A stretch of 64,000 nucleotides of DNA from a bacterium (GCA_016789445.1 JAEUQT010000002.1:72052-136051); one strand, 5' to 3'. Positions 11,768 to 35,620 are shown, numbered from the stretch's first letter. Numbers and translations: made by a program. Notes: generated from the sequence alone by a model not told the origin.

Positions 11768-11769
11768 CC

Positions 11770-12465
11770 ATGGCGTCTATTGCAGTAGTCGGCGCGCAGG
11801 GCTATGTCGGCAGGGCCTTAGTCATGGCGCTCAAATCTTCTGCGTACGAGGTGACGCCGGTCACGCGGGATACGTATACGGATAGTATGCATGGATCGTA
11901 TGACGTTCTTATAAACGCTGCGATGCCCAGTGCTCGTTTCAAAGCAAAGGAAGATCCAGAGTGGGATTTCCGGGAGACTGTTGCAAAGACCGCGGATCTC
12001 CTCTATCGATGGAAGTTTGGTAAATTCGTCCAGATCAGCACCATCTCTGCCCGCTCCCAACTCGATACGATGTATGGACGCCACAAGGCGGCAGCGGAGT
12101 CATTGTGTAGCGCGAAAGACAACCTCATAGTACGTCTCGGGGCAATGTACAGCGAAGATTTGCAAAAAGGGGTTTTGGTCGACATGGTCTCCGGCAGACC
12201 TGTGTTCGTCGACGGGGAAAGTAGGTATTGTTTCGCGTCTCGTGACTTCGTTGCTTCATGGATTGTATCTAATCTTGATCGCACGGGAATTGTCGAGGTC
12301 GGCGGGAGGGAGGCGGTTGCTCTCAAGGATATCGCTGCACATCTCGGCACGAACATCTTGTTTCAAGGCGTTGTCGATCATCAGGAGATATCGGAACCCC
12401 ATGACGATTTCCCCTATGCTCGCGAGGTATTCACCTTTCTTGATAATTGGAAGCCGAAGCTCTAG
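11770..12465 (+). CDS. Short NAD(P)-binding SDR-like sugar reductase/epimerase
   Basis: 231 aa with the N-terminal Rossmann motif IAVVGAQGYVGRALV. It is packed (3-bp spacing) in a sugar-modification operon. Confidence 0.4.
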   Translation: MASIAVVGAQGYVGRALVMALKSSAYEVTPVTRDTYTDSMHGSYDVLINAAMPSARFKAKEDPEWDFRETVAKTADLLYRWKFGKFVQISTISARSQLDTMYGRHKAAAESLCSAKDNLIVRLGAMYSEDLQKGVLVDMVSGRPVFVDGESRYCFASRDFVASWIVSNLDRTGIVEVGGREAVALKDIAAHLGTNILFQGVVDHQEISEPHDDFPYAREVFTFLDNWKPKL

Positions 12466-12481
12466 AATCAGATTACGAAAC

Positions 12482-13750: not shown

Positions 13751-15713
13751 TATTCTCCGATTTCTTTTCGTAGAGAATGTACTTATCGAATCTGTCCACT
13801 TGGGTGTATAGACCGGTAAGGCGCTCAGTTTCTTCGAATTTCTGATCAACTAGTACGAAATCAGGAGTACCGGAGAATAGTAGTGCCAGGTTTTTCTCGC
13901 CGCGGATGACGTTGTCGCCGTATCTGAGATATTGGTAATACTCGGAGGATTCAAAGAAGATCACTGCTTCCGGAACATTATAGAAAAAAACACTTTTTCC
14001 CTCGGGAATATTCCGCAAATGTTCAGTAAGTTCCGCTGAGCGAGTACTATTGCGGTATTCAGAGATCCACGAGTTAAAGACGGTTTGATGCGCTTGGAAC
14101 AGTATCAGGGCAGCGATACATACTCCGCTTCCCACACGAGTGATGGTCCGACGTTGTGGCGGGGTTGAAATGGTTGCGAGTGCGAGAGGAAGGAATACGA
14201 GCGCGAGGACTTCTGCAGGAAAGAAGTAGCGATAGAATCCGCGACTCATGAGGTAGAGGCCTAGGTTTACCATAGCGAACGTCACGGCAAAAAACTCGAT
14301 TGACTCGACTCTAATTCCGCGCTTCCAGCGAGCCATGAGTGAGAGTATCCATATGCCGAGCAGACCGAGGAAATACATCGGCTGCAATTCTGTGAAGAAT
14401 TGCACGAAGATCAGGGGAAGTCGTTGAAACGGGGTGGAGCCATCGGCGTTGGCGGCGAATAAAATCTCCCTGAGAGCATGGACGTCACCGCCGAGATGAA
14501 TCACAAACCAGGCGCATACGACCGCGAGAGCGCCGAGTGCGTAGGCGCACGCCGCATTGAAGGATAGGGATTTGCGTCGAATGAGAAAAATAAGAAACGC
14601 TGACGGAGCAATAATGAGGAGGTAGATTGGTTTTGTGGCCATTGAGAGTCCGGCAAGGATGCCGGCGCCAACCCAGACAGGTACGCGCCCTGATCGTTCG
14701 GCGCGTATAAATGCAAGCAGTGATGCTGCGAAAAACATGAGTCCCGGCACTTCGCCGAGTACGTTTTTCCCGTGACCGTAGAGAGGCGCGAATGTAACAA
14801 GAAGTAGCAGGGAGAGAATGGGTGTCGTATACCCGCGCTCGGGAGCAATGCTTCGAACCAATGCAAATATGCACCATCCGAGGAGAATAATGAACGCAAC
14901 CATAACGCATCGTGCGATCAAAAGATCTGTGCCGAAGAGCGCGAACGACAGCGCGATCGGATAGATGACCGGAATACTGGTGGTCAAGAAGTCGGTCGAT
15001 ATGAATTCCCCCGGGGCAATCTGTATTCCGTACACGTCGTGGTCTATGAGATTCTGTGACACTTGTACGATCGATCCCTCGTCCAACCATGTTGGTGGAT
15101 TCTCCTGTAATCGATAGAAGGAAAGTAGTAACAGTGCCACAACCGCTCCCGCTATCATAAGTAGGTGGATTAGTTTGAGCGGTTCAACATCAGACTTTGC
15201 TGTTCGAGACTTGAAAACGAGGTGCTTGTAGCTGAAGAAATTAATGATCGCTATGCAGATTCCGCTGACGAGCTGCCCGATCAGGTAGTGGATATTCGCA
15301 TGTTCGACAAGGGTGTAGATAATTGTCGTGTTCAATATAAGCGTCAGGATCATCACCAAGAGATACAGCGTTGCTTGTATGTGTAGATGAGTGCGCGAGT
15401 TCTCAGCAAACGTCCAGAATTTTTGAAGAGAGAAGCTGACGAAGAACGAGACCGCGAACGCCGCAATAGAGGAATAGAGGTACCAGATATCAAAGAAATG
15501 TGTGAGAACAAACAGCGTTCCGAGATTAACAGCGGTCGCAAGACCTCCTGACAGGATAAATCTTACCAACCGCACAGTGGCGGGATGCGAAGTATCCAGC
15601 TCTCGATAGAGGGTTACGGCAGAGAGTAGTATTTCTCGAGCTGACATATGATTCACGGCGGAAAGTTTTTGGCGCAGTGTAGCATGAAAGCTCTTGCTGG
15701 ACGGGTTAGGCAA
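13737..15713 (-). CDS. Fusion: GtrA-like domain + large GT-C-like polytopic membrane glycosyltransferase
   Basis: 658 aa. The N-terminus has a GtrA-family signature (RFILSGGLATAVNLGTLFVLT...FSLQKFWTF). It is followed by more than 10 TM helices and a C-terminal soluble domain. Confidence 0.5.
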   Translation of the reverse strand: MPNPSSKSFHATLRQKLSAVNHMSAREILLSAVTLYRELDTSHPATVRLVRFILSGGLATAVNLGTLFVLTHFFDIWYLYSSIAAFAVSFFVSFSLQKFWTFAENSRTHLHIQATLYLLVMILTLILNTTIIYTLVEHANIHYLIGQLVSGICIAIINFFSYKHLVFKSRTAKSDVEPLKLIHLLMIAGAVVALLLLSFYRLQENPPTWLDEGSIVQVSQNLIDHDVYGIQIAPGEFISTDFLTTSIPVIYPIALSFALFGTDLLIARCVMVAFIILLGWCIFALVRSIAPERGYTTPILSLLLLVTFAPLYGHGKNVLGEVPGLMFFAASLLAFIRAERSGRVPVWVGAGILAGLSMATKPIYLLIIAPSAFLIFLIRRKSLSFNAACAYALGALAVVCAWFVIHLGGDVHALREILFAANADGSTPFQRLPLIFVQFFTELQPMYFLGLLGIWILSLMARWKRGIRVESIEFFAVTFAMVNLGLYLMSRGFYRYFFPAEVLALVFLPLALATISTPPQRRTITRVGSGVCIAALILFQAHQTVFNSWISEYRNSTRSAELTEHLRNIPEGKSVFFYNVPEAVIFFESSEYYQYLRYGDNVIRGEKNLALLFSGTPDFVLVDQKFEETERLTGLYTQVDRFDKYILYEKKSENISSR

Positions 15714-15773
15714 GTAGTGCTCTAATGGCGAATTATGGTGCTTGTCATCCGGCCGCGAAGGAAATTTTCATGG

Positions 15774-16550
15774 ATGGATCTGAGAGAGCTCTGGCAGGGA
15801 AGGGAATTGCTGCTTTTTTTTACGTGGCGCGACCTCAAGATCCGGTACAAACAGACTTTCATCGGCGTCGGATGGGCCATATTCCAGCCGCTCTCGACGA
15901 TGTTGATTTTCACGGTCTTGTTCGGCAAGTTTGCCAAGATCCCTTCCGACAATATCCCATATCCCGTATTCGTCTTCACGGGCCTACTGTTCTGGCAGCT
16001 CTTTTCTGCTTCGCTTCTGCAGGCAAGCAATAGCCTGGTCGCGAATCAGAACCTTCTTACGAAGGTATATTTTCCCCGCATCCTTCTGCCGATTTCGTCG
16101 GTATTCTCAAATCTGATCGATTTCCTTATCGCGTCAGTAATCCTCGCGGGTCTTATGGTGTGGTACGGATTCGTTCCTGAGCTGCGGGGACTTTTTATAC
16201 TGCCGCTCCTTCTTCTTATTACCTGTGTTTTTGCGGTCGGGCTTGGGCTTCTGCTCTCGGCAGTGAACGTTAAATACCGCGACGTTAAGTATGTTCTTCC
16301 GTTCTTCGTTCAGTTACTCATGTTTGTAACCCCGGTCATTTATTCACCATCCATACTGGGAAAATATTCCTGGGTACTCGCACTGAATCCGATGACCGGC
16401 GTGATTAAGGCGGCACGAGCAGCGCTTTTCGGTCTGCAGCCGATCAATTGGACTTTGCTCGGTCTTGCTGCACTCGCTGCGCTTATTGTCCTGGTAATTG
16501 GACTTGTCTACTTTAAGCAGACCGAACGATTCTTTGCAGATCTCATATGA
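15774..16550 (+). CDS. wzm: ABC-2 type polysaccharide export permease (Wzm/TagG-like)
   Basis: MDLRELWQGRELLLFFTWRDLKIRYKQTFIGVGWAIFQPL is the canonical ABC-2 permease N-terminus. It has 6 predicted TM helices and overlaps the downstream ATPase by 4 bp. Confidence 0.7.
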   Translation: MDLRELWQGRELLLFFTWRDLKIRYKQTFIGVGWAIFQPLSTMLIFTVLFGKFAKIPSDNIPYPVFVFTGLLFWQLFSASLLQASNSLVANQNLLTKVYFPRILLPISSVFSNLIDFLIASVILAGLMVWYGFVPELRGLFILPLLLLITCVFAVGLGLLLSAVNVKYRDVKYVLPFFVQLLMFVTPVIYSPSILGKYSWVLALNPMTGVIKAARAALFGLQPINWTLLGLAALAALIVLVIGLVYFKQTERFFADLI

Positions 16551-17797
16551 AGCCCATTATTGAAGTTAAATCTATCTCCAAGTCATATGTCTTGTCGGGC
16601 AAGAGCGATTACTATTTTGCCTTGCGTGACTCGCTCGCGGCTCTGATACAGAGACCCGGATCTTTTCTTGCTCGGAAAACAAAGCAAATAAGCGAATCGA
16701 TGGTTTTCTGGGCGTTAAAGGACGTAACGTTCTCAGTGGAGCCCGGCGAGATTGTCGGCGTCATTGGAAGGAATGGGGCAGGGAAATCAACTCTATTGAA
16801 GATACTCAATCGCATAACCGAGCCGACAGATGGAGAGGTAGTGATACGTGGCCGCATCTCGTCGCTCCTTGAAGTCGGTACGGGTTTCCATCCCGAACTT
16901 ACCGGGCGTGAGAACATCTATTTCAGCGGCGCAATCCTCGGTATGAAGCGAAGCGAGATCGCGCGTAAGTTCGACGAGATTGTCGCGTTTGCTGAAGTCG
17001 ATAAATTCCTAGATACACCCGTAAAACGATATTCCTCTGGAATGCAGGTGCGTCTGGCTTTTTCAGTTGCAGTGCATATGGAGCCCGACATTTTGCTGAT
17101 TGATGAAGTATTGGCTGTTGGAGACGCTGAATTTCAAAGAAAGTGTCTTGCAAAAATACATGAATCTGCTCGAAAATACGGACGTACCATCCTTTTCGTC
17201 AGCCATAATCTGGATGTCGTTCAAAGTCTATGCGATAGGAGTGTATTGCTCGAAGAAGGTCAAGTAAGAATGGTGGGCCCGACATCAGAAGTAGTCTCTA
17301 CCTATTTAGAGAGAATGGAAGCTAACTCAGGGGTTGCGCGCATTGAATTTCCTGAAGATTCTTCAAAAGGATTTGAACTAAAATCTGTTACCGTGCGTGG
17401 TGGCGACGGGCAACCGGCAACTACTTTCGAGCCCGATGTTCCTTTTAGGGTAGATGTGGAATATGAGGTTCGTGATAAAAAATCAAAATTCTGGATTACG
17501 GCTTCATGCACTAATGAGCATGGTGCTCTTGTATTCTATTCACGAGACACGGATAAGAATCCTAATTTGCTTGCTCGTAGAAAGGAGGGTATTCACAGGT
17601 CTGTATTCACGTTTCCAAGCAATAGTCATATTGCGATGAATGTTGGAAATTACAGTCTGACTGTTCGGATTGAACAAGATCCTTCTCGAGAAGCTATAAT
17701 ACCGCTGCAGATTACAAACGTAACCAATCGATTCTCGCATCATCATCATGGTGTAATGCTGGTCGAGAGTCCATGGGATAACACGGAATCATCATGA
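16547..17797 (+). CDS. wzt: ABC transporter ATP-binding protein (Wzt/TagH-like) with C-terminal extra domain
   Basis: Walker A GRNGAGKSTLLKIL, signature YSSGMQVRLAFSVAV and Walker B ILLIDEV are present. An additional ~170-aa C-terminal domain, as in O-antigen Wzt proteins, may bind a glycan terminus. Confidence 0.8.
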   Translation: MKPIIEVKSISKSYVLSGKSDYYFALRDSLAALIQRPGSFLARKTKQISESMVFWALKDVTFSVEPGEIVGVIGRNGAGKSTLLKILNRITEPTDGEVVIRGRISSLLEVGTGFHPELTGRENIYFSGAILGMKRSEIARKFDEIVAFAEVDKFLDTPVKRYSSGMQVRLAFSVAVHMEPDILLIDEVLAVGDAEFQRKCLAKIHESARKYGRTILFVSHNLDVVQSLCDRSVLLEEGQVRMVGPTSEVVSTYLERMEANSGVARIEFPEDSSKGFELKSVTVRGGDGQPATTFEPDVPFRVDVEYEVRDKKSKFWITASCTNEHGALVFYSRDTDKNPNLLARRKEGIHRSVFTFPSNSHIAMNVGNYSLTVRIEQDPSREAIIPLQITNVTNRFSHHHHGVMLVESPWDNTESS

Positions 17798-18519
17798 AAT
17801 ATTCGCCGAAATGGATTGGAAAAAAAATATTTGCACGCTTCCTTCAAACTCGGGAAAAAATCGGATTTCTACCTCTGGAAGGGATTTATGCGATTATTGC
17901 CAGCTATGGCTATAAGAATCTTGATTTCCCTGAAGCACTAAAAGTGATAGAAAAAATCCGAGAAGATAAATGGGTTCTCCAAAGCAATCTCGAGATGTAT
18001 CAATTATTCTCTTTGGCAAAAAAAACCAGCAAATTGGACGGCGAAGTTGCAGAGGTTGGGGTATATCGAGGAGGCTCTGCAAGAATCATACGCGAAGCGA
18101 CCTCAAAACCGCTGCATCTTTTCGATACTTTTTCTGGAGTTCCTAAGCCTTCTGAAAAAGATGAGCCTGATCAGGCAGAAGAGGGAGAATTAGCTTTTCC
18201 GCTCGAAGGCGTGCAAGAATATCTTAAGAATTATCAAAACATTTTCTATTACAAGGGTTTTTTTCCAGACTCCGCAACCGAAGAAATTAAGGCAAAGAAA
18301 TTCTCATTTGTCCACCTCGATGTTGATTTGTATCAGTCAACATTGGATGGACTGAAATTCTTCTATCCAAGGATGACGAAAGGAGGGGTAATCATATGTC
18401 ACGATTACGGGAAAATTGATGGCGCCCGAAGAGCGTTTGATGAATTCTTTGCTGACAAGAATGAAATAATAATAAAACCAGTTGAGACAATTCAATGCTT
18501 CATTATTAAAACTGCATAA
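17794..18519 (+). CDS. TylF/macrocin-O-methyltransferase-family SAM-dependent methyltransferase
   Basis: 241 aa. It has the MTase motif EVGVYRGGSA and an acidic region VHLDVDLY typical of TylF-like O-methyltransferases. It overlaps wzt by 4 bp and the region is AT-rich. Confidence 0.5.
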   Translation: MKYSPKWIGKKIFARFLQTREKIGFLPLEGIYAIIASYGYKNLDFPEALKVIEKIREDKWVLQSNLEMYQLFSLAKKTSKLDGEVAEVGVYRGGSARIIREATSKPLHLFDTFSGVPKPSEKDEPDQAEEGELAFPLEGVQEYLKNYQNIFYYKGFFPDSATEEIKAKKFSFVHLDVDLYQSTLDGLKFFYPRMTKGGVIICHDYGKIDGARRAFDEFFADKNEIIIKPVETIQCFIIKTA

Positions 18520-18540: not shown

Positions 18541-19284
18541 TCATCGACGTATCTTACGTACGATTCTTTGAAATAGATTCATCTTACTCGAACCCAAAAT
18601 TTTCCACTTCTTTCTTAAAGTGGGCAAATGCCATTCAGAATTTGGGCGCGCATATCTATGTACAAAAAGCGTTTGTCCGGATGTCTGATATGGCATGCAA
18701 TCGATGAGAAACATGAAGGAAGAATCAATGACATGAACTTCCGACGCGGATTCGATAATTTTCCCGTAATCGAAAATGTTATCCGTAAATCCAGTATTAG
18801 GAGCGATATGTGGCAATGTGGTCGAAATTCGCCGTCGCTTAATTGTGAAATTTCGTTCCTGGTCCTCGTGGAGGAATATATACGGTTTTGGGGGCGCTAT
18901 ACGATTATATAAATTTTGCTCGCGTATCAGGTCTCTTTGGACTTGAAAGCTAGTCCATTTTTTCTCAAAAACCACATTGGCAAGTGCATAAAACTGTCTT
19001 TCAACCGATACGCCTGAGGTGCGGTTCAGAAGTTCAAAACCGATTTTTTGAATGGAATCGAATTTATCTTTATGCCGTGCAAGAAAATGTGGTGCCTCGA
19101 TATGAGAGCATGGGATAATTTCAAGATTTTTGATATCACGATACATAAATGAGACGGAGGCAAGAGTCTGAGGTGCGGCAAGGATTGTTACGTGTGTGAA
19201 GCGAGTACAGTAGTCACGAACGATGCCGTGACAGATAATTTGATCCCCCAATCCGAGGTGAGAATAAAGAAGTACGGACGTCAT
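18541..19284 (-). CDS. Hypothetical protein (possible small GT-B-like/heptosyltransferase-like enzyme)
   Basis: ORF on the minus strand with the start placed at MTSVLLYSHLGLGDQIICHG (ATG at 19284). The longer ORF to 19506 would overlap the divergent ADH gene. Low GC. No confident family assignment. Confidence 0.3.
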   Translation of the reverse strand: MTSVLLYSHLGLGDQIICHGIVRDYCTRFTHVTILAAPQTLASVSFMYRDIKNLEIIPCSHIEAPHFLARHKDKFDSIQKIGFELLNRTSGVSVERQFYALANVVFEKKWTSFQVQRDLIREQNLYNRIAPPKPYIFLHEDQERNFTIKRRRISTTLPHIAPNTGFTDNIFDYGKIIESASEVHVIDSSFMFLIDCMPYQTSGQTLFVHRYARPNSEWHLPTLRKKWKILGSSKMNLFQRIVRKIRR

Positions 19285-19329: not shown

Positions 19330-20376
19330 GTGAAAATGAAAGCGGCCATCCTTGAGACGATAGATGCCCCCCTTACTATCGGGGAGGTTACCGTGGGGCA
19401 GCCTGCTTTCGGACAAGTATTGGTGAAGGTTCTCGTGAGCGGGATCTGCGGCGCCCAACTTCAGGAAATCGCCGGAAACAAAGGGAATGCAAAGTTCGTG
19501 CCACATCTTCTAGGCCATGAAGGATGCGGCATCGTCGAGGCTGTCGGAGAAGGTGTCACGCGCGTCAAAAAAGGAGATAAAGTCGTGATGCATTGGCGTA
19601 AAGGCGAGGGGATAGAATCCGATTTCCCGACATACGAATATGCGGGTAAGAACATGCCGAGCGGAAAAGTCACTACGTTCAGTGAGTATTCGTTGGTCTC
19701 TGAAAATCGGCTGACCGCGGTTCCGCACGACACTCCTGATGAGCTGTGCGCACTTCTCGGCTGTGGACTCTCGACCGCGTTAAGTGTGATAAATGATGAG
19801 GCGCGCGTACTGTTCGGCGAGAGCGTTCTTGTCATCGGCGCAGGCGGCTTGGGACTAAATATCCTTCAAGCGGCGAACATAGCACGTGCATATCCCATCG
19901 TGACTATCGATATCCATCCTGGAAAGAAGGAATTGGCCGAAAAGTGTGGAGCGCATCTATTCGTTGATTCGACACAAAGTGATATACGAGAGGTAGTTCA
20001 GAAGACGTTCGGTATTTCGGATTTTGATGTAATCATCGACACCTCAGGAAATAAGAAGGCCATCGAGACAACCCTCCCGCTTTTGCGAGGAGGAGGGCGG
20101 TACATCATGGTCGGACAACCGAAGCCAGGAGAAGTGATCGAGATTTCGAATGCACATCACCTGTTCGGCGGAGAAGGTAAGTCTATTCGTGCAACACAGG
20201 GTGGCGGTTTCTTGCCGACGACCGATATTCCGCGGTATATCAATCTGTATAAGACCGGAGCGCTCCATATCGACGACGTCATCACGCATCGGATCAAGCT
20301 AGATCAGGTGAACGACGCGATCGATGCGATCCGGAGCGGCACGGCGGGCCGTATCATGATCGAAATGCACGTATGA
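19330..20376 (+). CDS. Zn-dependent alcohol dehydrogenase (MDR family)
   Basis: HLLGHEGCGIVEAVGEGV is the zinc-ADH signature, and GAGGLGL is the NAD(P)-binding motif. Confidence 0.7.
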   Translation: MKMKAAILETIDAPLTIGEVTVGQPAFGQVLVKVLVSGICGAQLQEIAGNKGNAKFVPHLLGHEGCGIVEAVGEGVTRVKKGDKVVMHWRKGEGIESDFPTYEYAGKNMPSGKVTTFSEYSLVSENRLTAVPHDTPDELCALLGCGLSTALSVINDEARVLFGESVLVIGAGGLGLNILQAANIARAYPIVTIDIHPGKKELAEKCGAHLFVDSTQSDIREVVQKTFGISDFDVIIDTSGNKKAIETTLPLLRGGGRYIMVGQPKPGEVIEISNAHHLFGGEGKSIRATQGGGFLPTTDIPRYINLYKTGALHIDDVITHRIKLDQVNDAIDAIRSGTAGRIMIEMHV

Positions 20377-21332
20377 AGAAGCAATTGATCAATGCGTATA
20401 CGAAGATGCTCAGCATTCGAGCTGCTGAAGAGCAGATAGCCAAGCACTATCTCGATAATAAGATAATGAGCTTCGTGCACTTTTATGTGGGCCAGGAAGC
20501 AGTGGCTGTTGGGGTGAGTGATGCCCTGCGAGCGGAAGACCGAGCGATGGGGAATCATCGATCGCATGGACATTACCTTGCGAAAGGAGGGGATATGAAG
20601 CGGATGATGTGTGAGCTTCTCGGTAAAGCTGGGGGTTGTGCGCATGGTAAAGGGGGATCGATGCATATGATTGATACGTCGGTCAATTTCATCGGATCGA
20701 CGCCGATTCTCGGAAGTATTGTGCCTTTGGCCAACGGAAGCGCTTTCGAACAGAAATACTCGAAGAAAAAAGGCGTGACAGTGGCTTTTTTCGGGGATGG
20801 CGCTTTCGAAGAAGGTGTTGTCTACGAAACCCTCAATTTGGCAGCGCTCTTCAAACTACCGCTGCTTCTCGTGGTGGAAAACAACCTGTACTCCGTCAAT
20901 TCCAAGTTGCATGAGCGTCGCTCCGCCGGGCATGATTCTGAAAAGATTGTCACTGGTTTCGGTGCTGCGTATATCCGAGCTGACGGTAACGACTATGAGG
21001 ATGTGTATCGCAAGGCCGCAAAAGCAGTGACTGCGATGAGAAAGGGAGGAGGGCCTGTCGTCCTCGAATGCATGACCTATCGGCATATGGCGCACAGCGC
21101 TCCTATCTTCGATGATGCGCAGGGATATCGCGAAGAGGACGTGTTTGAGGTGCGCATCAAGAAAGATTCGGTACAGCGACTGCGCAAAAAACTCTTGCGA
21201 TTGGGGGTCTTAGAGAAACGGCTGGGCGCGATCGAGTCCGATGTGCAACAGGAAGCCGCGCGAAATCTCGCATATGCTATCGCTGCCGAGTACCCTGAGA
21301 AATCTGAGCTTTATACCGACGTCTATGCCTGA
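20373..21332 (+). CDS. TPP-dependent 2-oxoacid dehydrogenase E1 component, alpha subunit
   Basis: 319 aa with the TPP-binding region GDGAFEEGVVYETLNLAALFKLPLLLVVENNLY, an E1-alpha hallmark. It overlaps the previous gene by 4 bp. Confidence 0.7.
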   Translation: MKKQLINAYTKMLSIRAAEEQIAKHYLDNKIMSFVHFYVGQEAVAVGVSDALRAEDRAMGNHRSHGHYLAKGGDMKRMMCELLGKAGGCAHGKGGSMHMIDTSVNFIGSTPILGSIVPLANGSAFEQKYSKKKGVTVAFFGDGAFEEGVVYETLNLAALFKLPLLLVVENNLYSVNSKLHERRSAGHDSEKIVTGFGAAYIRADGNDYEDVYRKAAKAVTAMRKGGGPVVLECMTYRHMAHSAPIFDDAQGYREEDVFEVRIKKDSVQRLRKKLLRLGVLEKRLGAIESDVQQEAARNLAYAIAAEYPEKSELYTDVYA

Positions 21333-22365
21333 GCGAATCATAAAATACACGGAAGCGCTGAAAGAAGCGGCTGATCAGATGATGGAAATCGATCCGAAGG
21401 TGTTTATCATCGGTCTCGGCGTCTCGTATAAGAACGGTGCCGACGGTACCACTGCCGGACTCAAGGCGAAGTATCCGACCCGCGTGCTCGATGTCCCGGT
21501 CTCCGAAGCGGGAGTTACCGGCATGGCGGTCGGGGCAGCTATAACCGGTCTTCATCCGATCGTGCATCATGGCCGCGTCGAATTCAGCCTCCTTGCCTCA
21601 GATTCCATCTTCACCCAGGCGGCAAAATGGAATTATATGTTCGGCGGCGGTAATCCCGTGCCTATCGTCATCCGGATCAATGTCGGAAGACAATGGGGAA
21701 ACGGGCCGCAGCATACCCAAGCGTTATATTCGCTCTTCGGCAATGTACCCGGACTCAAGGTCGTGATACCCGCGACACCCTACATGGCGAAAGGTCTGCT
21801 CGTCTCTGCTCTTAAAGACAAAAATCCGGTCGTGATACTCGAACCGCGCTGGCTCTTCGGAATCAAGCAGCATGTACCGGTTGAACTGTATGCAGAACCG
21901 CTGGACAGGGCCCGTGTCGTGAAAAAAGGCAGGGACATCACCATCGTCGCGTATGGCGACGGTTTGATCGCGGCGCAGGAGGCGCTCGAGCTTATGAATG
22001 ACGATATCGACGCAGAGCTTATTGATCTCGTGAGTATCAATCCCATAGACATCGATACGGTCATCTCCTCGGTCAAGAAGACCGGCAGGCTTCTCTCTAT
22101 AGATACCACGAATGAAGCGTTCAATGTGGGATCAGAAATCACCGCGAAAGTAGTACAGAACGCATCCGTGACGCTCAAAGAGCGACCGCACGCGCTCAGT
22201 ACGCCGAATGTACCGTGTCCGACCTCGACAAACCTGACCGAATCGTATTATCCGACCAAGGTCAGCATCGCGAATGCCGTGAACACCATTTTCAAAAAGC
22301 CCGCGATCGATCACAAGCTCGGATTCGAAGAATTGCATCTCGCGCCGGGCATAACCATCAAATGA
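21325..22365 (+). CDS. TPP-dependent 2-oxoacid dehydrogenase E1 component, beta subunit
   Basis: Begins MPERIIKYTEALKEAADQMMEIDPKVFIIGLGV. It has transketolase-like pyrimidine-binding and C-terminal domains and overlaps the alpha subunit by 8 bp. Confidence 0.7.
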   Translation: MPERIIKYTEALKEAADQMMEIDPKVFIIGLGVSYKNGADGTTAGLKAKYPTRVLDVPVSEAGVTGMAVGAAITGLHPIVHHGRVEFSLLASDSIFTQAAKWNYMFGGGNPVPIVIRINVGRQWGNGPQHTQALYSLFGNVPGLKVVIPATPYMAKGLLVSALKDKNPVVILEPRWLFGIKQHVPVELYAEPLDRARVVKKGRDITIVAYGDGLIAAQEALELMNDDIDAELIDLVSINPIDIDTVISSVKKTGRLLSIDTTNEAFNVGSEITAKVVQNASVTLKERPHALSTPNVPCPTSTNLTESYYPTKVSIANAVNTIFKKPAIDHKLGFEELHLAPGITIK

Positions 22366-22367
22366 AA

Positions 22368-23102
22368 AAGATCCTTGTCATCGGCGAGAGTGCACGGGAT
22401 GTCTTCGTCTACTGTCATGCAGAACGTCTTGCTCCTGATCTCCCGATCCCTGTTTTGAACGTCATCGAGCAGAAAGAAAATCCCGGGATGGCGATGAATG
22501 TCGAGCGTAACATCAAAAGCATACTCTCGAGCTGCGATATTGTGACGAACCCGAATTGGAAGAACGTGACCAAGACGCGGTATATGCACCATGCAAGCAA
22601 TCATGCGTTCCTCAGGGTCGACACGAACCCGCGCATGCCGCGAGCCCAGGTGCGGAAGATTCCTTTGTCACGATATTCAGTCATCGCGATCTCGGACTAT
22701 AACAAGGGTTTCCTATCGGAAGCGGATATTCAGTATATCTGCGAGAATCACAACTGTGTGTTCCTCGACACCAAGAAGATCCTCGGCAATTTCGCTGCAA
22801 AAGCAGCTTTCATAAAGATAAACAACTTCGAGTACGAACGATCGAAAGCAAGCATCACCCCCGAAGTGATGCAGAAGACTATCGTGACACAAGGAGGAGG
22901 GGGTGCTTTATTTAAAAACAAGATATATCCGGTTCGACGATTTGAGGTGAAGGATACGTCGGGTGCCGGCGACAGCTTTTTCGCGGCATTAGTGGTCAAA
23001 TATGCAGAGACGAAGGATGTAATCAAATCGATTAAATTCGCCAATCTCTGTGCTTCAAACACCGTTCAGCACCGAGGAGTCTCCGTCATCAAGCGTCCGT
23101 AG
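22368..23102 (+). CDS. PfkB-family carbohydrate kinase (HldE kinase-domain-like; possible heptose-7-phosphate kinase)
   Basis: MKKILVIGESARDVFVY N-terminus and the C-terminal PfkB signature DTSGAGDSFFAALV. It is short (244 aa). Confidence 0.5.
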   Translation, partial: KILVIGESARDVFVYCHAERLAPDLPIPVLNVIEQKENPGMAMNVERNIKSILSSCDIVTNPNWKNVTKTRYMHHASNHAFLRVDTNPRMPRAQVRKIPLSRYSVIAISDYNKGFLSEADIQYICENHNCVFLDTKKILGNFAAKAAFIKINNFEYERSKASITPEVMQKTIVTQGGGGALFKNKIYPVRRFEVKDTSGAGDSFFAALVVKYAETKDVIKSIKFANLCASNTVQHRGVSVIKRP

Positions 23103-23105
23103 AGG

Positions 23106-23831
23106 TCATCGGATCAGGTCTGCGAATGCGCTGTCTATAAACACGGTATTCACGTTCGTATCGGCATAGACCATGTATCCTACTGATGCGAGGTACTCAA
23201 GTATTTCCTTCTGTTTTTCAACCGTACCTTGATCGCTATATCGTAACGTTTCGGCGCAAATAAGCTTCGGGCGGTATTTCGTTACATTGATCGATTTGAG
23301 GATCTCGAAATCCAATCCTTCTGCGTCGACGGAAATAATATCGACAGACCCGGAGAGATATTTTTCGACGATTGAATCAACAGTGTAGAGAGGGAGCTTT
23401 AGTACCTTCTGTATCGATTGATCGCCGTAGTTCTTAGTCGAGGCGTTCTTCTCGGCTTCTTTCTGAGAGAATGTGCCAAGGGGTTTCGAGCTCATGGCGT
23501 AGAAATCTGCGCCCTCGCTTTCCTCAGGACCGACGCCTGCCTGAAGACATACATCTCGTGTTCGCGTCCGTTTGATCACGCGAAAGAGTTCAGGATCAGG
23601 TTCGACGCACACGCCTCGAGATCCTGTCGAATAAAAGAGATACGTATTGTTGTTGAGGATCGGATGGTTGGTGCCGATGTCGATATAGGTCGGGTGCTCG
23701 ATACCTATCAGGTTCAGGGCGCACCGCATGAGAAGATCCTCGCCGCATTGCGAATAACTCTTCTTGTATTTTGTACTCAAGTGGTATTGCGCAAAAAGCA
23801 CATACTTTCTCCAATCAAGATATTTATTCAT
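23106..23831 (-). CDS. FkbM-family methyltransferase
   Basis: SQCGEDLLM...YIDIGTNHP matches the FkbM (Methyltransf_21) N-terminal signature. 241 aa. Confidence 0.55.
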   Translation of the reverse strand: MNKYLDWRKYVLFAQYHLSTKYKKSYSQCGEDLLMRCALNLIGIEHPTYIDIGTNHPILNNNTYLFYSTGSRGVCVEPDPELFRVIKRTRTRDVCLQAGVGPEESEGADFYAMSSKPLGTFSQKEAEKNASTKNYGDQSIQKVLKLPLYTVDSIVEKYLSGSVDIISVDAEGLDFEILKSINVTKYRPKLICAETLRYSDQGTVEKQKEILEYLASVGYMVYADTNVNTVFIDSAFADLIR

Positions 23832-24273
23832 GCTTGGGAGGGGATATCTTGTCCTGTATAAACTGCGTATAGTTTTCCCACAGATTTTTATCTGCCGAAT
23901 CTATCTTCTGACTGTCTCCTTTTCCGATCCGATACGAGTCCTTTTCATCGTGAGGGGTCGAGACTTCGAGCACGATTGCATCCGTTAGTGCAGTCAACTG
24001 ATGGGGGGCACCAATGGGAACATGCACAACATCGCCCTCTTTTAGGACATCTATAATACGTTCCGCATTCGTTAAATCATAATGACGCAGTTCAATACTT
24101 CCTTGAAGGATGTACCATGTCTCGTCTTTCTTGAGATGAAAATGGTCACTAAATGATGCGCCCGCAGTGAAATGCAATAATTTACCGCAGTATTTATCAT
24201 TATTTATGATCCAGATTTCCTTGCCCCAGCCTTTGGGGTGGATTTCGGGCTTAAGAATACGGATTTTACTCAT
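23824..24273 (-). CDS. Cupin-domain protein
   Basis: 149 aa with the GWGKEIWI...FHLKKDETWYILQGS conserved cupin barrel motifs. Confidence 0.45.
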   Translation of the reverse strand: MSKIRILKPEIHPKGWGKEIWIINNDKYCGKLLHFTAGASFSDHFHLKKDETWYILQGSIELRHYDLTNAERIIDVLKEGDVVHVPIGAPHQLTALTDAIVLEVSTPHDEKDSYRIGKGDSQKIDSADKNLWENYTQFIQDKISPPKHE

Positions 24274-24284
24274 GAAAGGTGGAG

Positions 24285-24983
24285 CTACGTGCCGGTAGAG
24301 TCATTATGCTGCGCTGGATGAAAAAGTCGAGGTACCGCTTCCCAATCCTCAAACAAGGCTACAGGTCCCGCTTCTTGAAGCAGGGATATTCGATCTTCAT
24401 CAAGAGCGAAGGGGGCGGGGATGGCAATGACCGAGGATCCAGCCTGGTGTGCTGCTTGTATGCCGACGACTGAATCCTCAAAGACTAGCTGGTCATTTCC
24501 AACTACATGTAATATATGTGCGGTGCGTGCGAAGACCTCTCCCGCGGGCTTTATCTCGCTGACGTCTTCTCGGAATACACATACAGCAGGTGGGAAAAAA
24601 CGATCCAAGCCAGTTTTTATCAGGATATCTGTTCCGAAATCTCGGCTCGTTGTAGAGCCGATGGCTATAGTGCAACCATGTGATAATTGCGACTCGATAA
24701 ACTCTATTAAGCCAGGTCGAGGAGCGAGGGTGGTTGCATTAAACAGTTCGACAAAATGAATTCGCTTGCGCTCTCGAGCAATTTCGAGTTGAAAATCAGG
24801 AAATTTCGACAACATGGCCTGAAAAATAAAACGCGCTCCGCCACCCATTGCGTTTGGCAGCCTGGCAATTTCAAGAGGAGACATGATGATGCCTTGTTCG
24901 GCGAAGGCTTGGGAATATGCTGTGAAATGAATTTCTTCCAAGTCGACACATGTGCCTTCCAGGTCGAATGCGACACCTTTCAT
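24285..24983 (-). CDS. HAD-superfamily hydrolase (subfamily IA-like phosphatase)
   Basis: Start at MKGVAFDLEGTCVDLEE (DxD motif I), with later SVVGIQAAHQAGSSVIAI-type motifs. The longer ORF to 25190 overlaps the divergent gene, so the internal start was chosen. Confidence 0.5.
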   Translation of the reverse strand: MKGVAFDLEGTCVDLEEIHFTAYSQAFAEQGIIMSPLEIARLPNAMGGGARFIFQAMLSKFPDFQLEIARERKRIHFVELFNATTLAPRPGLIEFIESQLSHGCTIAIGSTTSRDFGTDILIKTGLDRFFPPAVCVFREDVSEIKPAGEVFARTAHILHVVGNDQLVFEDSVVGIQAAHQAGSSVIAIPAPFALDEDRISLLQEAGPVALFEDWEAVPRLFHPAQHNDSTGT

Positions 24984-25059
24984 AGCGGAAGAGTGCAATG
25001 CATCACGAAAGAATGCAAGGTGAAATGGACGACGAGGGCGAGCTCTGTATACTGGCACG

Positions 25060-25962
25060 ATGCGAACCTTAGTGACTGGCGGAACCGGTTTTGTTGGATC
25101 GAATCTCGCGTTTGAACTGGAAAAGCAAGGACATGATGTCGTGGTCATCGGCAGCCGAGCCGAGCCTGCGTTGGCCGGGTTTAGCGGCACGGTCCTGTAT
25201 CGAGAAAACGGCAGGTTGCCGCTCGAATCGATCGGACATATCGACGTCCTCTTTCATCAAGGCGCGAATGCGGATACTTCGATTCTCGATCGTGAGCAGA
25301 TGTTCCGCGATAATGTCGAAGATTCGAGAGCTGTGTTCGAGTACGCACTCAAAAATGGCGCACATCACATTACCTACGCATCATCGACCGCTGTATACGG
25401 TAATCTACCTACTCCGTATAAGGAAGATGGCCCTGTTGCGCCTTTAAATCCGTACGGTGAATCGAAAGCTGCGCTCGATACATACGCAATGGATTTTGCT
25501 CGAAACAATCCTGCGGTACGAGTGATCGGCCTGAGATACTGCAATGTCTACGGCCCGCGAGAAGCACATAAGGGAAAGATGGCCAGCATGATCTATCAGC
25601 TCGCGACGCAGATGCACCAAGGAAATCCGCGCATATTCAAATGGGGTGAGCAGAAGCGCGAGTATATCTATGTAAAGGATGTGGTCGAGGCGAATATCAG
25701 CTCGCTTACGGCGAACGAAAGTACTGTCGTGAACTGCTCGAGCGGCGTACCGGTCAGTTTCAATGAACTGGTGCGTATACTCAACAAGGTCTTAGGGCTG
25801 GATCGCGTGCCGGAATATATCGATAATCCGTATGAGGGTCTCTATCAGAATCACATCGAGTGCGATATCTCTCGCATGGCAGACGTTCTAGGGTTCCGAC
25901 CCGCGTACACCGTCGAGACAGGGATCAGGGATTACTTCGATTCCGGTTTCTTGTCTCGATAA
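25060..25962 (+). CDS. NAD-dependent epimerase/dehydratase, ADP-L-glycero-D-manno-heptose 6-epimerase (HldD)-like
   Basis: MRTLVTGGTGFVGSNL Rossmann start and the YGESKAALD catalytic motif. The 300-aa size and the neighbourhood (kinase, nucleotidyltransferase, phosphatase) fit HldD-like enzymes. Confidence 0.55.
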   Translation: MRTLVTGGTGFVGSNLAFELEKQGHDVVVIGSRAEPALAGFSGTVLYRENGRLPLESIGHIDVLFHQGANADTSILDREQMFRDNVEDSRAVFEYALKNGAHHITYASSTAVYGNLPTPYKEDGPVAPLNPYGESKAALDTYAMDFARNNPAVRVIGLRYCNVYGPREAHKGKMASMIYQLATQMHQGNPRIFKWGEQKREYIYVKDVVEANISSLTANESTVVNCSSGVPVSFNELVRILNKVLGLDRVPEYIDNPYEGLYQNHIECDISRMADVLGFRPAYTVETGIRDYFDSGFLSR

Positions 25963-26486
25963 GCGGAAACAATCCTCTCAATCTGCCGTGTCGTCGAATG
26001 GCGACCGGTATGGCGGATCAGCTTCACTTTCCCGCCGTAGGAGGCGACGATTGCGCCTTCGGTAATCTCAGCAAGAGAGCGATCGGATCCTTTCACGTGG
26101 ATATCGGGCCTCACCTTCTTGATCCACGGATCAGGCGTGTCCGATGAGAATATGAATACATAATCGACGCACTCCAGGGCGGACACCATGAATGCCCGTT
26201 CCTTTGCGGGAACGATCGGGCGGAGCTTGCCTTTATAGCGTCGTACTGATGCATCCGAATTAACGCCCACAATAAGCACATCACCGTGCTTCTTTGCTTC
26301 AATTAAGCTGTGTACATGTCCGGGATGCAGGAGATCAAATGTGCCGTTGGTGGTGACTATCAGCATGCCGTTGCTGCGGAGATTCTGTACTTTGCGCGCT
26401 ACTGCAGCAATGCTCAGTATCTTAGGGGAGGTGAGGCTCGGAGCCATATAGATCCGCATCATAGGTGCGTCCCAGGCTTTATTCAA
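25932..26486 (-). CDS. Cytidylyltransferase-like nucleotidyltransferase (RfaE domain II-like heptose-1-P adenylyltransferase)
   Basis: NGTFDLLHPGHVHSL is the (H/T)xGH motif of the cytidylyltransferase superfamily, preceded by an IAAVARKVQNLRSNG region as in HldE domain II. The true start may be an internal Met. Confidence 0.55.
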   Translation of the reverse strand: MNKAWDAPMMRIYMAPSLTSPKILSIAAVARKVQNLRSNGMLIVTTNGTFDLLHPGHVHSLIEAKKHGDVLIVGVNSDASVRRYKGKLRPIVPAKERAFMVSALECVDYVFIFSSDTPDPWIKKVRPDIHVKGSDRSLAEITEGAIVASYGGKVKLIRHTGRHSTTRQIERIVSAYRDKKPESK

Positions 26487-26545: not shown

Positions 26546-27517
26546 ATGGCTGATTTTTACTCCGGCAAGAAGGTGTTGGTAACGGGAGGTGCTGGATTTA
26601 TCGGCAGCCACACAGTTGAGATGCTGGTTGAACGTGGTGCCGATGTTACGGTGCCGGTACGCTCGACGACAAGCCAAGATTTCCTTAAAGACGTCAAGGG
26701 TCAAATTTCGATCATTGAATCTGATCTCCGAGATCGAAAAAAGATTGAAGAACTGATGCAAGGGAAAGACATTGTCGTCAATCTTGCTGCAGCCAAAGGA
26801 GGTGGCATCGCGCACAGTATGCGACACCATGGCAGCTTGTTTCGAGACAACATGGAGCCGTTCCTTACGGTACTCGATGCGGCGCGGGTCGCGGGAGTCG
26901 AGCGCTTCCTCGTCGTTAGTTCTGCATGTGTGTATTCTCGAGAAGCAAGTGATCATGCTGTTGAGTCGGACGGATTTGTGGGTGTTCCAGAAGCCGCGAA
27001 CGCGGGATATGGATGGGCGAAGCGTATGGAGGAATATCTGGGACAGGCATACGCTGAGGAATTCGGCATGAAAATTGCAATTGCGCGTGCCTACAACGCC
27101 TACGGTCCTCGTGACGCATATTTCGCCGAGTACAGCCATGTGATCCCAAGTCTCATTCAGCGTATTTTCCGTGGAGACAATCCGCTGACTATCTGGGGAA
27201 CCGGTACACAGACTCGTTCGTTTGTATATTCGACCGATTTCGCTCGAGGCATTCTTGATGTGTGTGAAAAATATCCCGTCGCTGACCCCTTGAATATCGG
27301 CAGTGACGAGGAGATATCGATAGCTGATCTCGCCCGGCTCCTGATTGAGATTTCAGGAAAAAAGATAGATATCGAATTCGATACGTCGAAGCCTGATGGT
27401 CCGATGCGTCGGAGTGCTGATATGTCGAAAGCGTTCGAGAAGATAGCATTCAAGGCTCACATGCCGTTGCGTGAGGGTCTTCAGAAGTGTGTAGATTGGT
27501 ACAGAGCCCACATATGA
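26546..27517 (+). CDS. NAD-dependent sugar epimerase/dehydratase (extended SDR)
   Basis: VLVTGGAGFIGSHTVEML Rossmann motif and the YGWAK catalytic motif. 323 aa. Confidence 0.65.
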   Translation: MADFYSGKKVLVTGGAGFIGSHTVEMLVERGADVTVPVRSTTSQDFLKDVKGQISIIESDLRDRKKIEELMQGKDIVVNLAAAKGGGIAHSMRHHGSLFRDNMEPFLTVLDAARVAGVERFLVVSSACVYSREASDHAVESDGFVGVPEAANAGYGWAKRMEEYLGQAYAEEFGMKIAIARAYNAYGPRDAYFAEYSHVIPSLIQRIFRGDNPLTIWGTGTQTRSFVYSTDFARGILDVCEKYPVADPLNIGSDEEISIADLARLLIEISGKKIDIEFDTSKPDGPMRRSADMSKAFEKIAFKAHMPLREGLQKCVDWYRAHI

Positions 27518-28179
27518 GTGTCACCTTGATCGCGGCAACATTGAATGAGCTTGAGGCCGCTAAGGTTGTTTTGCCGCGTATTGATCGATCGGTCGTTGAT
27601 GAGATTATTGTCGTCGACGGCGGATCAACAGACGGCACAGTTGAATTCTGTGAATCGCAAGGGTACACGGTGTATCGTCAGAAACAGCGCGGATATGGAT
27701 CTGCAATGCGGGAAGCCTCTGCTCTCGCAAAGGGCGATCTTATTATCGAATTTCCGCCGGATGGGAATTCGCTTCCCGAGAAGGTTCCTGATGTAGTGAA
27801 AAAACTTGAAGAAGGGTACGATCTCGTCATTGCATCACGGTACGCGCCGGGTGCACGGAGTGATGATGATGATTTCCTCACCGGCATCGGGAATTGGGGA
27901 TTCACGTTTGTCACTAATCTGTTGTTCTGGAGCTCGTATACCGACGTCTTGGTGGGTTTTCGTGGATACAGGAAGTCGGCGCTTGAGAAGGTGCGTATGG
28001 ACGCACCTGGCCTTGAATGGTCCATCCAGATGCCCATTCAATTCCGCAAGCATCGTCTCCGCACTGCTGATATTCCGGCTATTGAACCAGCGCGCATCGG
28101 TGGCGTGCGTAAGATGCGTCCGTTCAGGACGGGGTGGCGAATACTGAAGCTTCTCATTCGTGAGCGGTTTGCCCTATAA
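27514..28179 (+). CDS. GT2 glycosyltransferase (polyprenyl-phosphate sugar synthase-like)
   Basis: Start at the ATG in an ATGA overlap with the previous stop. It carries IIVVDGGSTDGT and DLVIASR motifs. 221 aa. Confidence 0.6.
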   Translation: MSVTLIAATLNELEAAKVVLPRIDRSVVDEIIVVDGGSTDGTVEFCESQGYTVYRQKQRGYGSAMREASALAKGDLIIEFPPDGNSLPEKVPDVVKKLEEGYDLVIASRYAPGARSDDDDFLTGIGNWGFTFVTNLLFWSSYTDVLVGFRGYRKSALEKVRMDAPGLEWSIQMPIQFRKHRLRTADIPAIEPARIGGVRKMRPFRTGWRILKLLIRERFAL

Positions 28180-34108: not shown

Positions 34109-34109
34109 G

Positions 34110-34582
34110 CTATTTGAGGGCACGCAGGGCACCTTCGATGCGTGCTTTCACGTTCGGATGCAGGGAAGGGTCGTCGATCGAAAACCACTGCATCTCGCTG
34201 TGTTGGCTATCCGCATCCGCTTTCTCATCGGCGAGCGTACAGGCGAAGTATACATCCACGGTATGGTAATTCACGCCGTCGAATATCGATGCAGGATTGA
34301 TCTCGTTGATAATGCCGCTGAAGACGAGGTCAGAAGCAGTGCGATCAAGACCGAGTTCTTCTTTGGCGATGCGGCAAGCTGCTTGGACGAGGTCTTCGTT
34401 CTTGTAGAGGCGACCACCGAAGCTGTAGAACTTGCCGGCGTAGGGTTCGTTGGTGCGCTTGCCGAGGAGGATCTTGGTCCTGTCGGGATTAAAAAAGAGA
34501 ACATCCACCGTCACGACGGGGAAGTTCTCCATAAGGCGTCGGTATTCTTCAAGAGGGACGCGGCCGACGATCGGGAATTCGC

Positions 34583-34586: not shown

Positions 34587-35620
<1,034 letters not shown>

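Follow-up and report, generated by a model that had tools for sequence, protein, structure and literature searches.

Introduction

To our knowledge, E1-like enzyme pairs which use thiamine pyrophosphate (TPP) to form carbon-carbon bonds on sugars are confined to a small number of antibiotic pathways of actinomycetes, and their biochemistry has barely been characterised. AviB1/AviB2 of avilamycin and Pau11/Pau12 (= Plm8/Plm9) of paulomycin biosynthesis are E1-like pairs for which the addition of a two-carbon (C2) branch has been proposed or is genetically supported, the pyruvate-derived C2 unit being placed at C-4 of nucleoside diphosphate (NDP)-4-keto-deoxyhexoses; in the paulomycin pathway the acetyl branch is reduced to a hydroxyethyl group by the aldo-keto reductase Pau7 (PMC4753412, PMC4802897). 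The present study concerns a predicted E1 alpha/beta gene pair within a 64,000-nucleotide stretch of bacterial DNA (GCA_016789445.1, JAEUQT010000002.1:72052-136051), henceforth referred to as the window. We report here that this pair, together with a Zn-dependent alcohol dehydrogenase (Zn-ADH), a kinase resembling HldA and a protein resembling glycosyltransferases of family 9 (GT9), is part of a recurrent gene module of Patescibacteria which is newly recognised in this work.

A first-pass annotation of the window had compared the pair to AviB1/AviB2, and this precedent is indeed found in the literature (PMC4753412, PMC4802897). Like the described pairs, that of the window is a stand-alone E1 alpha/beta pair without E2 and E3 in a sugar cluster, its TPP chemistry appears intact, and a partner oxidoreductase is to be expected. 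The comparison, which is one of gene context and description, also reveals differences. The described pairs belong to antibiotic clusters and are accompanied by 4,6-dehydratase, 2,3-dehydratase and deoxyhexose genes, whereas the window type belongs to Patescibacterial cell-surface glycan clusters and is accompanied by the Zn-ADH, the HldA-like kinase and the GT9-like transferase. Mini-E1 and split-E1 architectures within the window-type family constitute a further difference. Since its conserved partners are of this kind, with HldC- and HldD-like proteins in addition in the window, the likely substrate is a heptose-type sugar rather than a classical NDP-4-keto-6-deoxyhexose. The earlier idea that the pair acts on an NDP-ketosugar to yield a branched sugar is thus partly supported: the orphan pair in a sugar context stands, but its partners point to heptose chemistry and not to a classical branched 4-keto-deoxyhexose.

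A further system, YerE/YerF of yersiniose A biosynthesis, is cited in a passage of PMC4802897 as a TPP-dependent flavoenzyme acting together with a reductase. It resembles our proposal for the window in the chemistry proposed for it, by which a C2 unit from pyruvate would be transferred onto a keto-sugar nucleotide and the resulting acetyl branch subsequently reduced. YerE is an acetolactate-synthase-type TPP enzyme and not an E1 alpha/beta pair. A full-text literature search returned no account in which a TPP/E1 enzyme occurs together with genes of the heptose pathway, nor one of the Patescibacterial module, and nothing relevant was found on ADP-heptose in conjunction with radical SAM and thiamine or on higher-carbon sugars in conjunction with TPP.

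Comparison of the E1 pair with canonical pyruvate dehydrogenase

The genes at the centre of the analysis are the following:

18541-19284, minus strand: GT9-like protein, 247 amino acids (MBL8158374, NCBI name "hypothetical")
19336-20376, plus strand (open reading frame from 19330): Zn-type medium-chain dehydrogenase/reductase alcohol dehydrogenase (Zn-ADH), 346 amino acids (MBL8158375; PF08240 and PF00107)
20373-21332, plus strand: TPP-binding E1 alpha, 319 amino acids (MBL8158376; PF00676, 222 bits)
21325-22365, plus strand: E1 beta, 346 amino acids (MBL8158377; PF02779 and PF02780)
22362-23102, plus strand: short HldA-like PfkB kinase, 246 amino acids (MBL8158378, NCBI name "hypothetical"; PF00294)

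The NCBI gene calls MBL8158374-378 are identical in length to these reading frames; for the Zn-ADH, the ATG at 19336 is favoured as the likely start as it gives 346 amino acids, the length of MBL8158375. As read from the sequence, the Zn-ADH stop and the E1 alpha start overlap by 4 bp (ATGA), the two E1 genes by 8 bp, and the E1 beta stop and the kinase start again by 4 bp, with ATGA in common. Because of these overlaps the four genes from Zn-ADH to kinase look like a single translationally coupled unit. The GT9-like gene, which had been overlooked in the first-pass annotation, is divergent from the Zn-ADH gene and separated from its start by a gap of 51 bp. Reading frames and domains bear out the Zn-ADH, E1 alpha, E1 beta, kinase and FkbM genes of the first-pass annotation, together with their coordinates and the 8-bp overlap. 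The FkbM methyltransferase gene, which had been placed behind the pair in the same operon, is present at that site but is encoded on the minus strand and converges on the kinase gene, and is thus not part of the kinase transcript.

The closest sequence relatives of the pair are pyruvate-type E1 enzymes (TIGR03182; human pyruvate dehydrogenase (PDH) E1). Fold and domain set are like those of human PDHA1/PDHB (PDB 6cer, 1ni4) and of alphaproteobacterial PdhA/PdhB, at about 40% identity, and the catalytic elements are common to both. E1 alpha contains an intact TPP motif (GDG...NN) and a loop, YRHMAHS, which corresponds to human YRYHGHS, its His and Ser matching H263 and S264; in E1 beta the equivalents of Glu59 and His128 are conserved. 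Since TPP motif, alpha-His, beta-Glu and beta-His are all intact, the TPP chemistry of the predicted pair should be competent.

Unlike PDH E1, however, the pair scores below the equivalog cut-offs of NCBIfam, with 307 bits for E1 alpha against TIGR03182 (cut-off 393.85) and, for E1 beta, 262.7 bits against PRK09212 (cut-off 321) and 252.7 bits against PRK11892 (cut-off 454). E1 beta of the window clade carries a C-terminal extension of about 20 amino acids (46 versus 26 residues past position 300). In tblastn searches, the Rhizobium proteins PdhC, Lpd and LipA as queries detected neither E2 nor E3 nor LipA, be it in the 64-kb window or in the related loci L001-L020, L022, L026, L047 and L067, and E2/E3 were absent from all of about 40 related module loci, so that the absence of adjacent E2/E3 genes noted in the first-pass annotation holds for both. 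The same probes were positive in nearly all canonical PDH outgroup loci. These outgroup loci were obtained by a contig search with an E1 alpha alignment (generic TPP-region peptides) and are mostly alphaproteobacterial PDH loci, with one close relative among them.

A neighbour-joining tree of 113 E1 alpha sequences, which is without support values and without AviB1/B2-type sequences, displays three groups, namely E2-linked PDHs, a tight window clade and a loose group of other orphan pairs. Within it, the E1 alpha of the window falls into a Patescibacterial clade of its own, apart from the PDHs which adjoin E2; the phylogenetic check proposed beforehand thus yields no clustering with canonical PDH. 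Taken together, the scores below cut-off, the absence of E2, E3 and LipA, the separate clade and the extension of E1 beta argue against membership in a dehydrogenase complex and, judged by its sequence, the pair is not a canonical PDH.

Conservation of the gene module

Homologues of E1 alpha at 63-98% identity stem almost exclusively from Patescibacteria metagenome-assembled genomes (MAGs), the hosts being assigned to Paceibacterota, Kaiserbacteria, Wolfebacteria, Yonathbacteria, Minisyncoccota and others. Wherever the flanking sequence of a close relative is long enough, the Zn-ADH gene precedes the E1 pair and an unannotated GT9-like gene lies beside the Zn-ADH gene. To quantify this linkage, 79 metagenome loci fetched by means of a GT9-like alignment were probed with the proteins of the window. 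The count covers the 62 loci, earlier-fetched ones included, which extend for at least 4.5 kb on one side of the GT9-like gene. The following genes were found together with the latter:

51 of 62 loci: E1-type TPP enzyme
32 of 62 loci: full E1 alpha/beta
19 of 62 loci: mini TPP form
45 of 62 loci: Zn-ADH (48-71% identity)
31 of 62 loci: PfkB (HldA-like) kinase, after the TPP enzyme
13 of 62 loci: FkbM methyltransferase homologue
12 of 62 loci: EEP-family gene
7 of 62 loci: HldC-like nucleotidyltransferase
7 of 62 loci: cupin (65-68% identity)
6 of 62 loci: HAD::NTP_transferase fusion

The GT9-like gene is the most constant partner of the E1 module. Its orientation relative to the Zn-ADH gene varies between loci, being either divergent or co-directional, in the latter case sometimes with an overlap, and adjacency is kept throughout. 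The retention of this adjacency in varied orientations points to a functional link rather than to inherited synteny. HldC-like homologues (48-52% identity) are present in L008, L105, L117, L120 and L147, and HldD-like homologues (42-58% identity) in the first three of these. The type of HAD protein found in the window is not conserved with the module; loci with a mini-E1 possess the HAD::NTP_transferase fusion instead. In L003, L005, L097 and L101, too, the module has genes for Wzm/Wzt in its vicinity.

In module loci devoid of the HldA-like kinase, the position after E1 beta is taken by an EEP (Exo_endo_phos) gene (L003 12666-13487; L005 12243-13028; L092, L101, L106, L107 and L122), which looks like an alternation of kinase and phosphoesterase.

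Replacement of module components

In 19 loci the E1 alpha/beta pair is replaced, between the same Zn-ADH (48-62% identity) and kinase (53-67% identity), by a single protein of about 394-400 amino acids, henceforth mini-E1 (L135 11688-12872; L139 13007-14191; L169 5875-7077; 16 further loci). This protein joins the PP half, from the N-terminus of E1_dh, to Transket_pyr (PYR) and lacks both Transketolase_C and the C-terminal half of E1 alpha. In L139, Zn-ADH, mini-E1, kinase and the HAD::NTP_transferase fusion follow each other in this order. The parts of E1 which are missing from the mini forms are those which handle E2 and the lipoyl domains in classical E1, and we know of no described E1-type TPP enzyme of such minimal size. 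In being interchangeable with a 394-amino-acid PP+PYR fusion the window-type pair is, again, unlike PDH E1.

A second kind of replacement concerns the oxidoreductase. In L123, L132, L136, L153 and L155, neither the ADH nor the kinase is present; instead, a radical-SAM/SPASM gene is located between separate genes for PYR (about 177 amino acids) and PP (about 212 amino acids) TPP subunits, directly after the GT9-like gene (L155 10648-12866; L132 10645-12833; L123 10692-12928; L153 13209-14896; L136 10679-12976). Gene order differs in L136 and L153, and some variants have a fused TPP enzyme preceded by the radical-SAM/SPASM gene. Some radical-SAM/SPASM enzymes, such as BtrN and anSME, are alcohol-oxidising dehydrogenases. 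The replacement of the ADH by a member of a class which includes alcohol oxidisers would therefore fit a carbonyl-generating role of the Zn-ADH.

The module family thus comprises three architectures, namely the full alpha/beta pair, the fused mini-E1 and the split mini-E1 interleaved with a radical-SAM gene. The mini and split forms imply that the TPP core alone is indispensable and that the redox partner is exchangeable.

More distant orphan E1 alpha/beta pairs (40-45% identity) occur in a Polaromonas MAG, in MAGs labelled Proteobacteria or Gammaproteobacteria and in an Elusimicrobia MAG. In L009, L015, L017 and L022 (about 5-13 kb) such pairs lie beside GmhA, a cytidylyltransferase (CTase)-PfkB fusion (reversed HldE-like), a short-chain dehydrogenase/reductase (SDR) and two radical-SAM/SPASM genes, to which L022 adds a B12-radical-SAM gene and a dehydratase similar to GDP-mannose 4,6-dehydratase (GMD). 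Given this company of GmhA and CTase-PfkB, a link between orphan E1 pairs and genes of heptose activation exists in no fewer than two unrelated types of cluster.

Partner proteins and heptose-like activation genes

The GT9-like protein has no Pfam match even at E<=1. Its AlphaFold2 model (pLDDT 92) finds WaaF (1psw, E 1.4e-5), TibC, WaaC and a Veillonella GT9 structure as best matches among PDB entries by Foldseek, with a probability of 1.0 and TMq values of 0.46-0.57 towards GT9 structures. An N-terminal LGLGD motif, which includes Asp14, is nearly invariant among its homologues, all of those found being Patescibacterial. The model suggests a transferase of heptosyltransferase fold, although the protein is about 80-100 amino acids shorter than GT9 enzymes and lacks the Pfam Glyco_transf_9 match.

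Many GT9-like homologues (P0126, P0167 and about 30 others; L168 3665-4879; L169 3378-4685) comprise 404-435 amino acids owing to a C-terminal extension of about 150-170 amino acids for which there is no Pfam match.

In the Zn-ADH, the Cys/His/Cys ligands of the catalytic zinc align with those of class III ADH (4l0q), compared to which the lobe binding the structural zinc is apparently deleted. A "TIDI" segment aligns with the NAD-specifying Asp of class III ADH, and this NAD-type Asp weakly suggests that the enzyme would work in the oxidative direction.

The kinase reaches 104.7 bits against TIGR02198 (rfaE_dom_I; cut-off 345), and its sole sequence match in the PDB is HldA from Burkholderia (4e84). 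With its AlphaFold2 model (pLDDT 91), the top seven Foldseek matches are all B. cenocepacia HldA (E 3e-17 to 5e-16), ribokinase matching less well (E about 1e-13).

In a Minisyncoccia genome (L167 8001-8774) a copy of the HldA-like kinase with 60% identity is located among housekeeping genes (SecDF, amino-acid kinase), and its surroundings contain neither an E1 nor an ADH nor a GT9-like gene. With 2259 matches, the kinase family thus extends beyond the module.

Behind the kinase, the window contains the following genes:

23106-23831, minus strand: FkbM-family methyltransferase (PF05050, TIGR01444)
23824-24273, minus strand: small cupin (Cupin_2; weak matches to the TIGR01479 phosphomannose isomerase (PMI) domain and to WbuC cupins)
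24285-25001, minus strand: HAD hydrolase of the beta-phosphoglucomutase (beta-PGM) family (HAD_2, TIGR02009)
25060-25962, plus strand: HldD-like SDR, resembling ADP-glyceromanno-heptose 6-epimerase (TIGR02197)
25932-26486, minus strand: HldC-like nucleotidyltransferase, resembling heptose-1-phosphate adenylyltransferase (TIGR02199, rfaE_dom_II)

The HldC-like protein scores 168.7 bits against TIGR02199 (cut-off 181.5) and only 34 bits against TagD, and the HldD-like SDR 233.3 bits against TIGR02197 (cut-off 274.6). The HAD protein, which is of the beta-PGM family and not of GmhB type, could be a sugar phosphatase or mutase. The small cupin may be a sugar-phosphate isomerase or epimerase and possibly a substitute for GmhA, to which no match was obtained in the window with an E. 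coli GmhA sequence as probe. With this same probe a GmhA homologue was detected inside the module in L008 and L105.

HldA-like kinase, HldC-like nucleotidyltransferase, HldD-like SDR and the GT9 fold of the transferase are four independent proteins which point to ADP-heptose chemistry, and by these resemblances the module of the window is followed by an ADP-heptose-like activation set made up of the genes for the HldC-like, HldD-like, HAD and cupin proteins. Kinase, nucleotidyltransferase, epimerase and transferase have their best matches in the ADP-heptose pathway and among GT9 heptosyltransferases, and some module loci include GmhA. The system of the window nevertheless deviates from the established pathway in that all scores are below cut-off, the kinase is about 60 amino acids shorter, the HAD is of beta-PGM and not of GmhB type, the hosts are Patescibacteria and as such devoid of lipopolysaccharide, and the heptose-like genes stand together with those of a TPP enzyme and an ADH.

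A polyol-phosphate system similar to TagD/TagF is disfavoured by the preference of the nucleotidyltransferase for HldC over TagD and by the transferase, whose best-matching folds are of GT9. We also rejected, as a general explanation, that heptose-7-phosphate is supplied by the TPP/ADH pair in place of GmhA, since GmhA co-occurs with the full module in L008 and L105.

Further genes of the window

The coupled unit is embedded in a glycan cluster about 37 kb long which includes Wzm/Wzt, in agreement with the glycan or sugar setting assigned to the pair in the first-pass annotation. Further genes of the window are:

12242-13750 and 28179-29447: two C-methyltransferase-like genes (Methyltransf_13/14)
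15735-16550, plus strand: Wzm permease
16547-17797, plus strand: Wzt ATPase with Wzt_C domain
17794-18519, plus strand: TylF-type methyltransferase
26546-27517: dehydratase-type SDR
34583-35713, minus strand: dehydratase-type SDR, GMD

The upstream side of the cluster contains glycosyltransferases, two Methyltransf_13/14 C-methyltransferases, Wzm/Wzt and the TylF-type methyltransferase; on the downstream side there are the cupin, the HAD, two SDRs, the cytidylyltransferase-like (HldC-like) gene, a GT2 gene, the GMD and a Wzy_C/TPR protein. SecA and GatB genes lie beyond the cluster, further downstream. Scans for promoters and terminators between 15.5 and 27.6 kb gave site numbers no higher than in shuffled sequence.

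The two C-methyltransferase genes had been tied to the branched sugar in the first-pass annotation. Both exist, yet across the loci they are not linked to the E1 module, and those of the window probably serve another sugar. Likewise, the dehydratase-type SDRs do not travel with the module, as opposed to the Zn-ADH or the radical-SAM gene. A trio of cupin, short SDR and C-methyltransferase (window 11363-13750, plus strand) is kept in L003 (18752-20960, 66-77% identity); being otherwise no companion of the E1 module, it probably represents a separate C-methyl sugar pathway.

At 35712-36503 (plus strand) a 263-amino-acid protein displays an unusual fusion of a CTP_transf_like nucleotidyltransferase domain with a C-terminal cupin of the mannose-6-phosphate-isomerase type. 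Its gene adjoins the GMD gene and an SDR gene (33176-34132, minus strand), and the fusion protein may provide a second route of sugar activation. An apparent multidomain reading frame at 3507-5438 (plus strand) combines GT4 with partial UDP-glucose/GDP-mannose dehydrogenase domains and is either a fusion or two genes read together; others are found at 6480-9179 (plus strand, GT4 with PMT_2) and 13737-15713 (minus strand, GtrA with PMT_2). A single reading frame at 46483-55833 (minus strand) encodes 3116 amino acids without a Pfam match at E<=1e-4. Surface proteins of giant size are a common feature of Patescibacteria.

Discussion

We tentatively regard the E1 pair as an E2-independent TPP carboligase which would move a C2 unit from pyruvate onto the carbonyl of a heptose-type sugar, with the Zn-ADH as its redox partner, a reading for which we see nearly as much in favour as against. 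Donor, acceptor, the position attacked, the direction of the ADH and the order of steps are what we infer from the gene set. A heptose-type sugar would be activated by the HldA-like kinase, the HAD phosphatase or mutase, the HldC-like nucleotidyltransferase and the HldD-like SDR, the part of the isomerase falling to GmhA in some loci and, in the window, possibly to the cupin. The NAD-type Zn-ADH would create a carbonyl group on the sugar or else later reduce the added acetyl group. E1 alpha/beta would decarboxylate pyruvate to hydroxyethylidene-TPP and add the resulting C2 carbanion to the sugar carbonyl, leading to a sugar with a C-acetyl or 1-hydroxyethyl branch or to a chain-extended sugar. 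Ultimately, the GT9-like transferase would put this sugar on the glycan, which Wzm/Wzt would export, with O-methylation by the FkbM and TylF enzymes.

Several observations weigh against this proposal. Kinase, nucleotidyltransferase and epimerase all stay below the equivalog cut-offs of NCBIfam, and the GT9-like protein has no Pfam GT9 match and only moderate TM-scores. In the window GmhA is missing and the HAD is of beta-PGM instead of GmhB type, and across the loci nucleotidyltransferase genes are near the module in only 13 of the 62. About one third of the E1 alpha/beta loci have an EEP-family gene in the position of the kinase, for which the model does not account. The order ADH, E1, kinase fits just as well a de novo backbone route in which the C-C bond is formed before phosphorylation. 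The E1 alpha tree is subject to the limits named above, and the proposal as a whole is built on sequence, predicted structure and gene linkage, with pyruvate as the presumed donor. The C2 unit may end up as a branch, as a chain extension or as part of a de novo backbone.

With respect to chain extension, a more specific course of events can be envisaged which, at present, we consider unlikely. The Zn-ADH, or the radical-SAM enzyme in its place, would oxidise the terminal CH2OH of an activated heptose to an aldehyde, and E1 would extend the chain by acyloin condensation with pyruvate. The product would be a nine-carbon omega-deoxy-keto or omega-deoxy-hydroxy sugar which the compact GT9-like enzyme would add to Patescibacterial surface glycans as a lineage-specific residue, possibly a chain-terminating one recognised by Wzt. 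If this is true, higher-carbon sugars would be made by a TPP-dependent route not described before, and the candidate phyla radiation would have its first defined pathway for a surface sugar.

Instead of modifying a preformed heptose-type sugar, the E1 pair might build a backbone de novo, according to the logic of DXS in the methylerythritol phosphate (MEP) pathway or of the lincosamide octose. Here, the C2 unit of pyruvate would be joined to the aldehyde group at C1 of an aldose, either free or phosphorylated, to give a 1-deoxy-ketose, which the ADH would reduce or adjust, which kinase, HAD and nucleotidyltransferase would activate, and which the GT-B transferase would attach as a sugar or polyol phosphate. 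Compact operons with the order ADH, TPP enzyme, kinase and HAD::nucleotidyltransferase (L139) would be in line with such a route, as would the tight coupling of the kinase to E1 beta, the lack of GmhA in most module loci and the relatedness of E1, DXS and transketolase as TPP enzymes, weak DXP_synthase_N matches having been seen. We deem it rather unlikely, however, as a 1-deoxy-2-ketose reduced by the ADH has no anomeric centre for an activation of HldA/HldC type. Moreover, GmhA, which makes ordinary heptose-7-phosphate, resides in the module at L008 and L105, so that TPP enzyme and ADH do not replace the backbone supply there, and the nucleotidyltransferase matches HldC far better than TagD (168.7 against 34 bits). 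The TPP enzyme could also be a non-oxidative 2-keto-acid decarboxylase, with a substrate such as a 3-deoxy-2-ulosonic acid or hydroxypyruvate, in an Ehrlich-type sequence in which the ADH reduces the aldehyde and kinase and nucleotidyltransferase activate the alcohol or 2-deoxy sugar so formed, which is then transferred to the glycan. TPP decarboxylase and Zn-ADH form a classical arrangement, the mini-E1 demonstrates that a TPP core suffices, and kinase and nucleotidyltransferase come next in the operon. That the nearest relatives are pyruvate-type E1s (TIGR03182, human PDH E1), that the heptose-like enzymes are left unaccounted for and that no ulosonic-acid gene of KdsA or NeuB type is seen in the window or the annotated loci nevertheless renders this sequence of events decidedly improbable.

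The pair could, finally, be an ordinary catabolic or fermentative E1 which has come to lie in a glycan cluster by chance, either as E1 of PDH or acetoin dehydrogenase with E2 and E3 encoded remotely or as a pyruvate decarboxylase-like E1 which makes ethanol together with the ADH. Its best hidden Markov model and PDB matches are PDH E1 subunits, the catalytic residues including the alpha-His loop are kept, some source annotations name relatives acetoin oxidoreductase, and the search for E2 and E3 covered the 64-kb window, out of a contig of 326 kb, and fetched loci. We would like to note, though, that the scores are below the equivalog cut-offs, that the clade lies apart from all E2-linked PDHs and that E1 beta bears its C-terminal extension. 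Moreover, dozens of loci, with several gene orders among them, repeat the linkage to GT9-like protein and HldA-like kinase, the pair is replaceable by a mini-E1 without Transketolase_C and the ADH by a radical-SAM enzyme, so that a purely catabolic role appears highly improbable.

The analysis brings to light a large and well-conserved family of putative sugar-type E1 enzymes in uncultivated Patescibacteria, the module core of which is wired to heptose-type kinase and transferase genes and, in some loci, the window included, to HldC- and HldD-like genes too. If the proposed transfer of a C2 unit onto a heptose-type sugar proves true, PDH-like genes in genomes without a tricarboxylic acid cycle would be re-annotated, and two "hypothetical" proteins, the GT9-like protein and the HldA-like kinase, would gain testable roles within a set of four to eight genes that offers itself as a testable enzyme system for a new sugar modification. 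The modification would be located on cell surfaces by which the episymbiotic lifestyle of these organisms is probably mediated.

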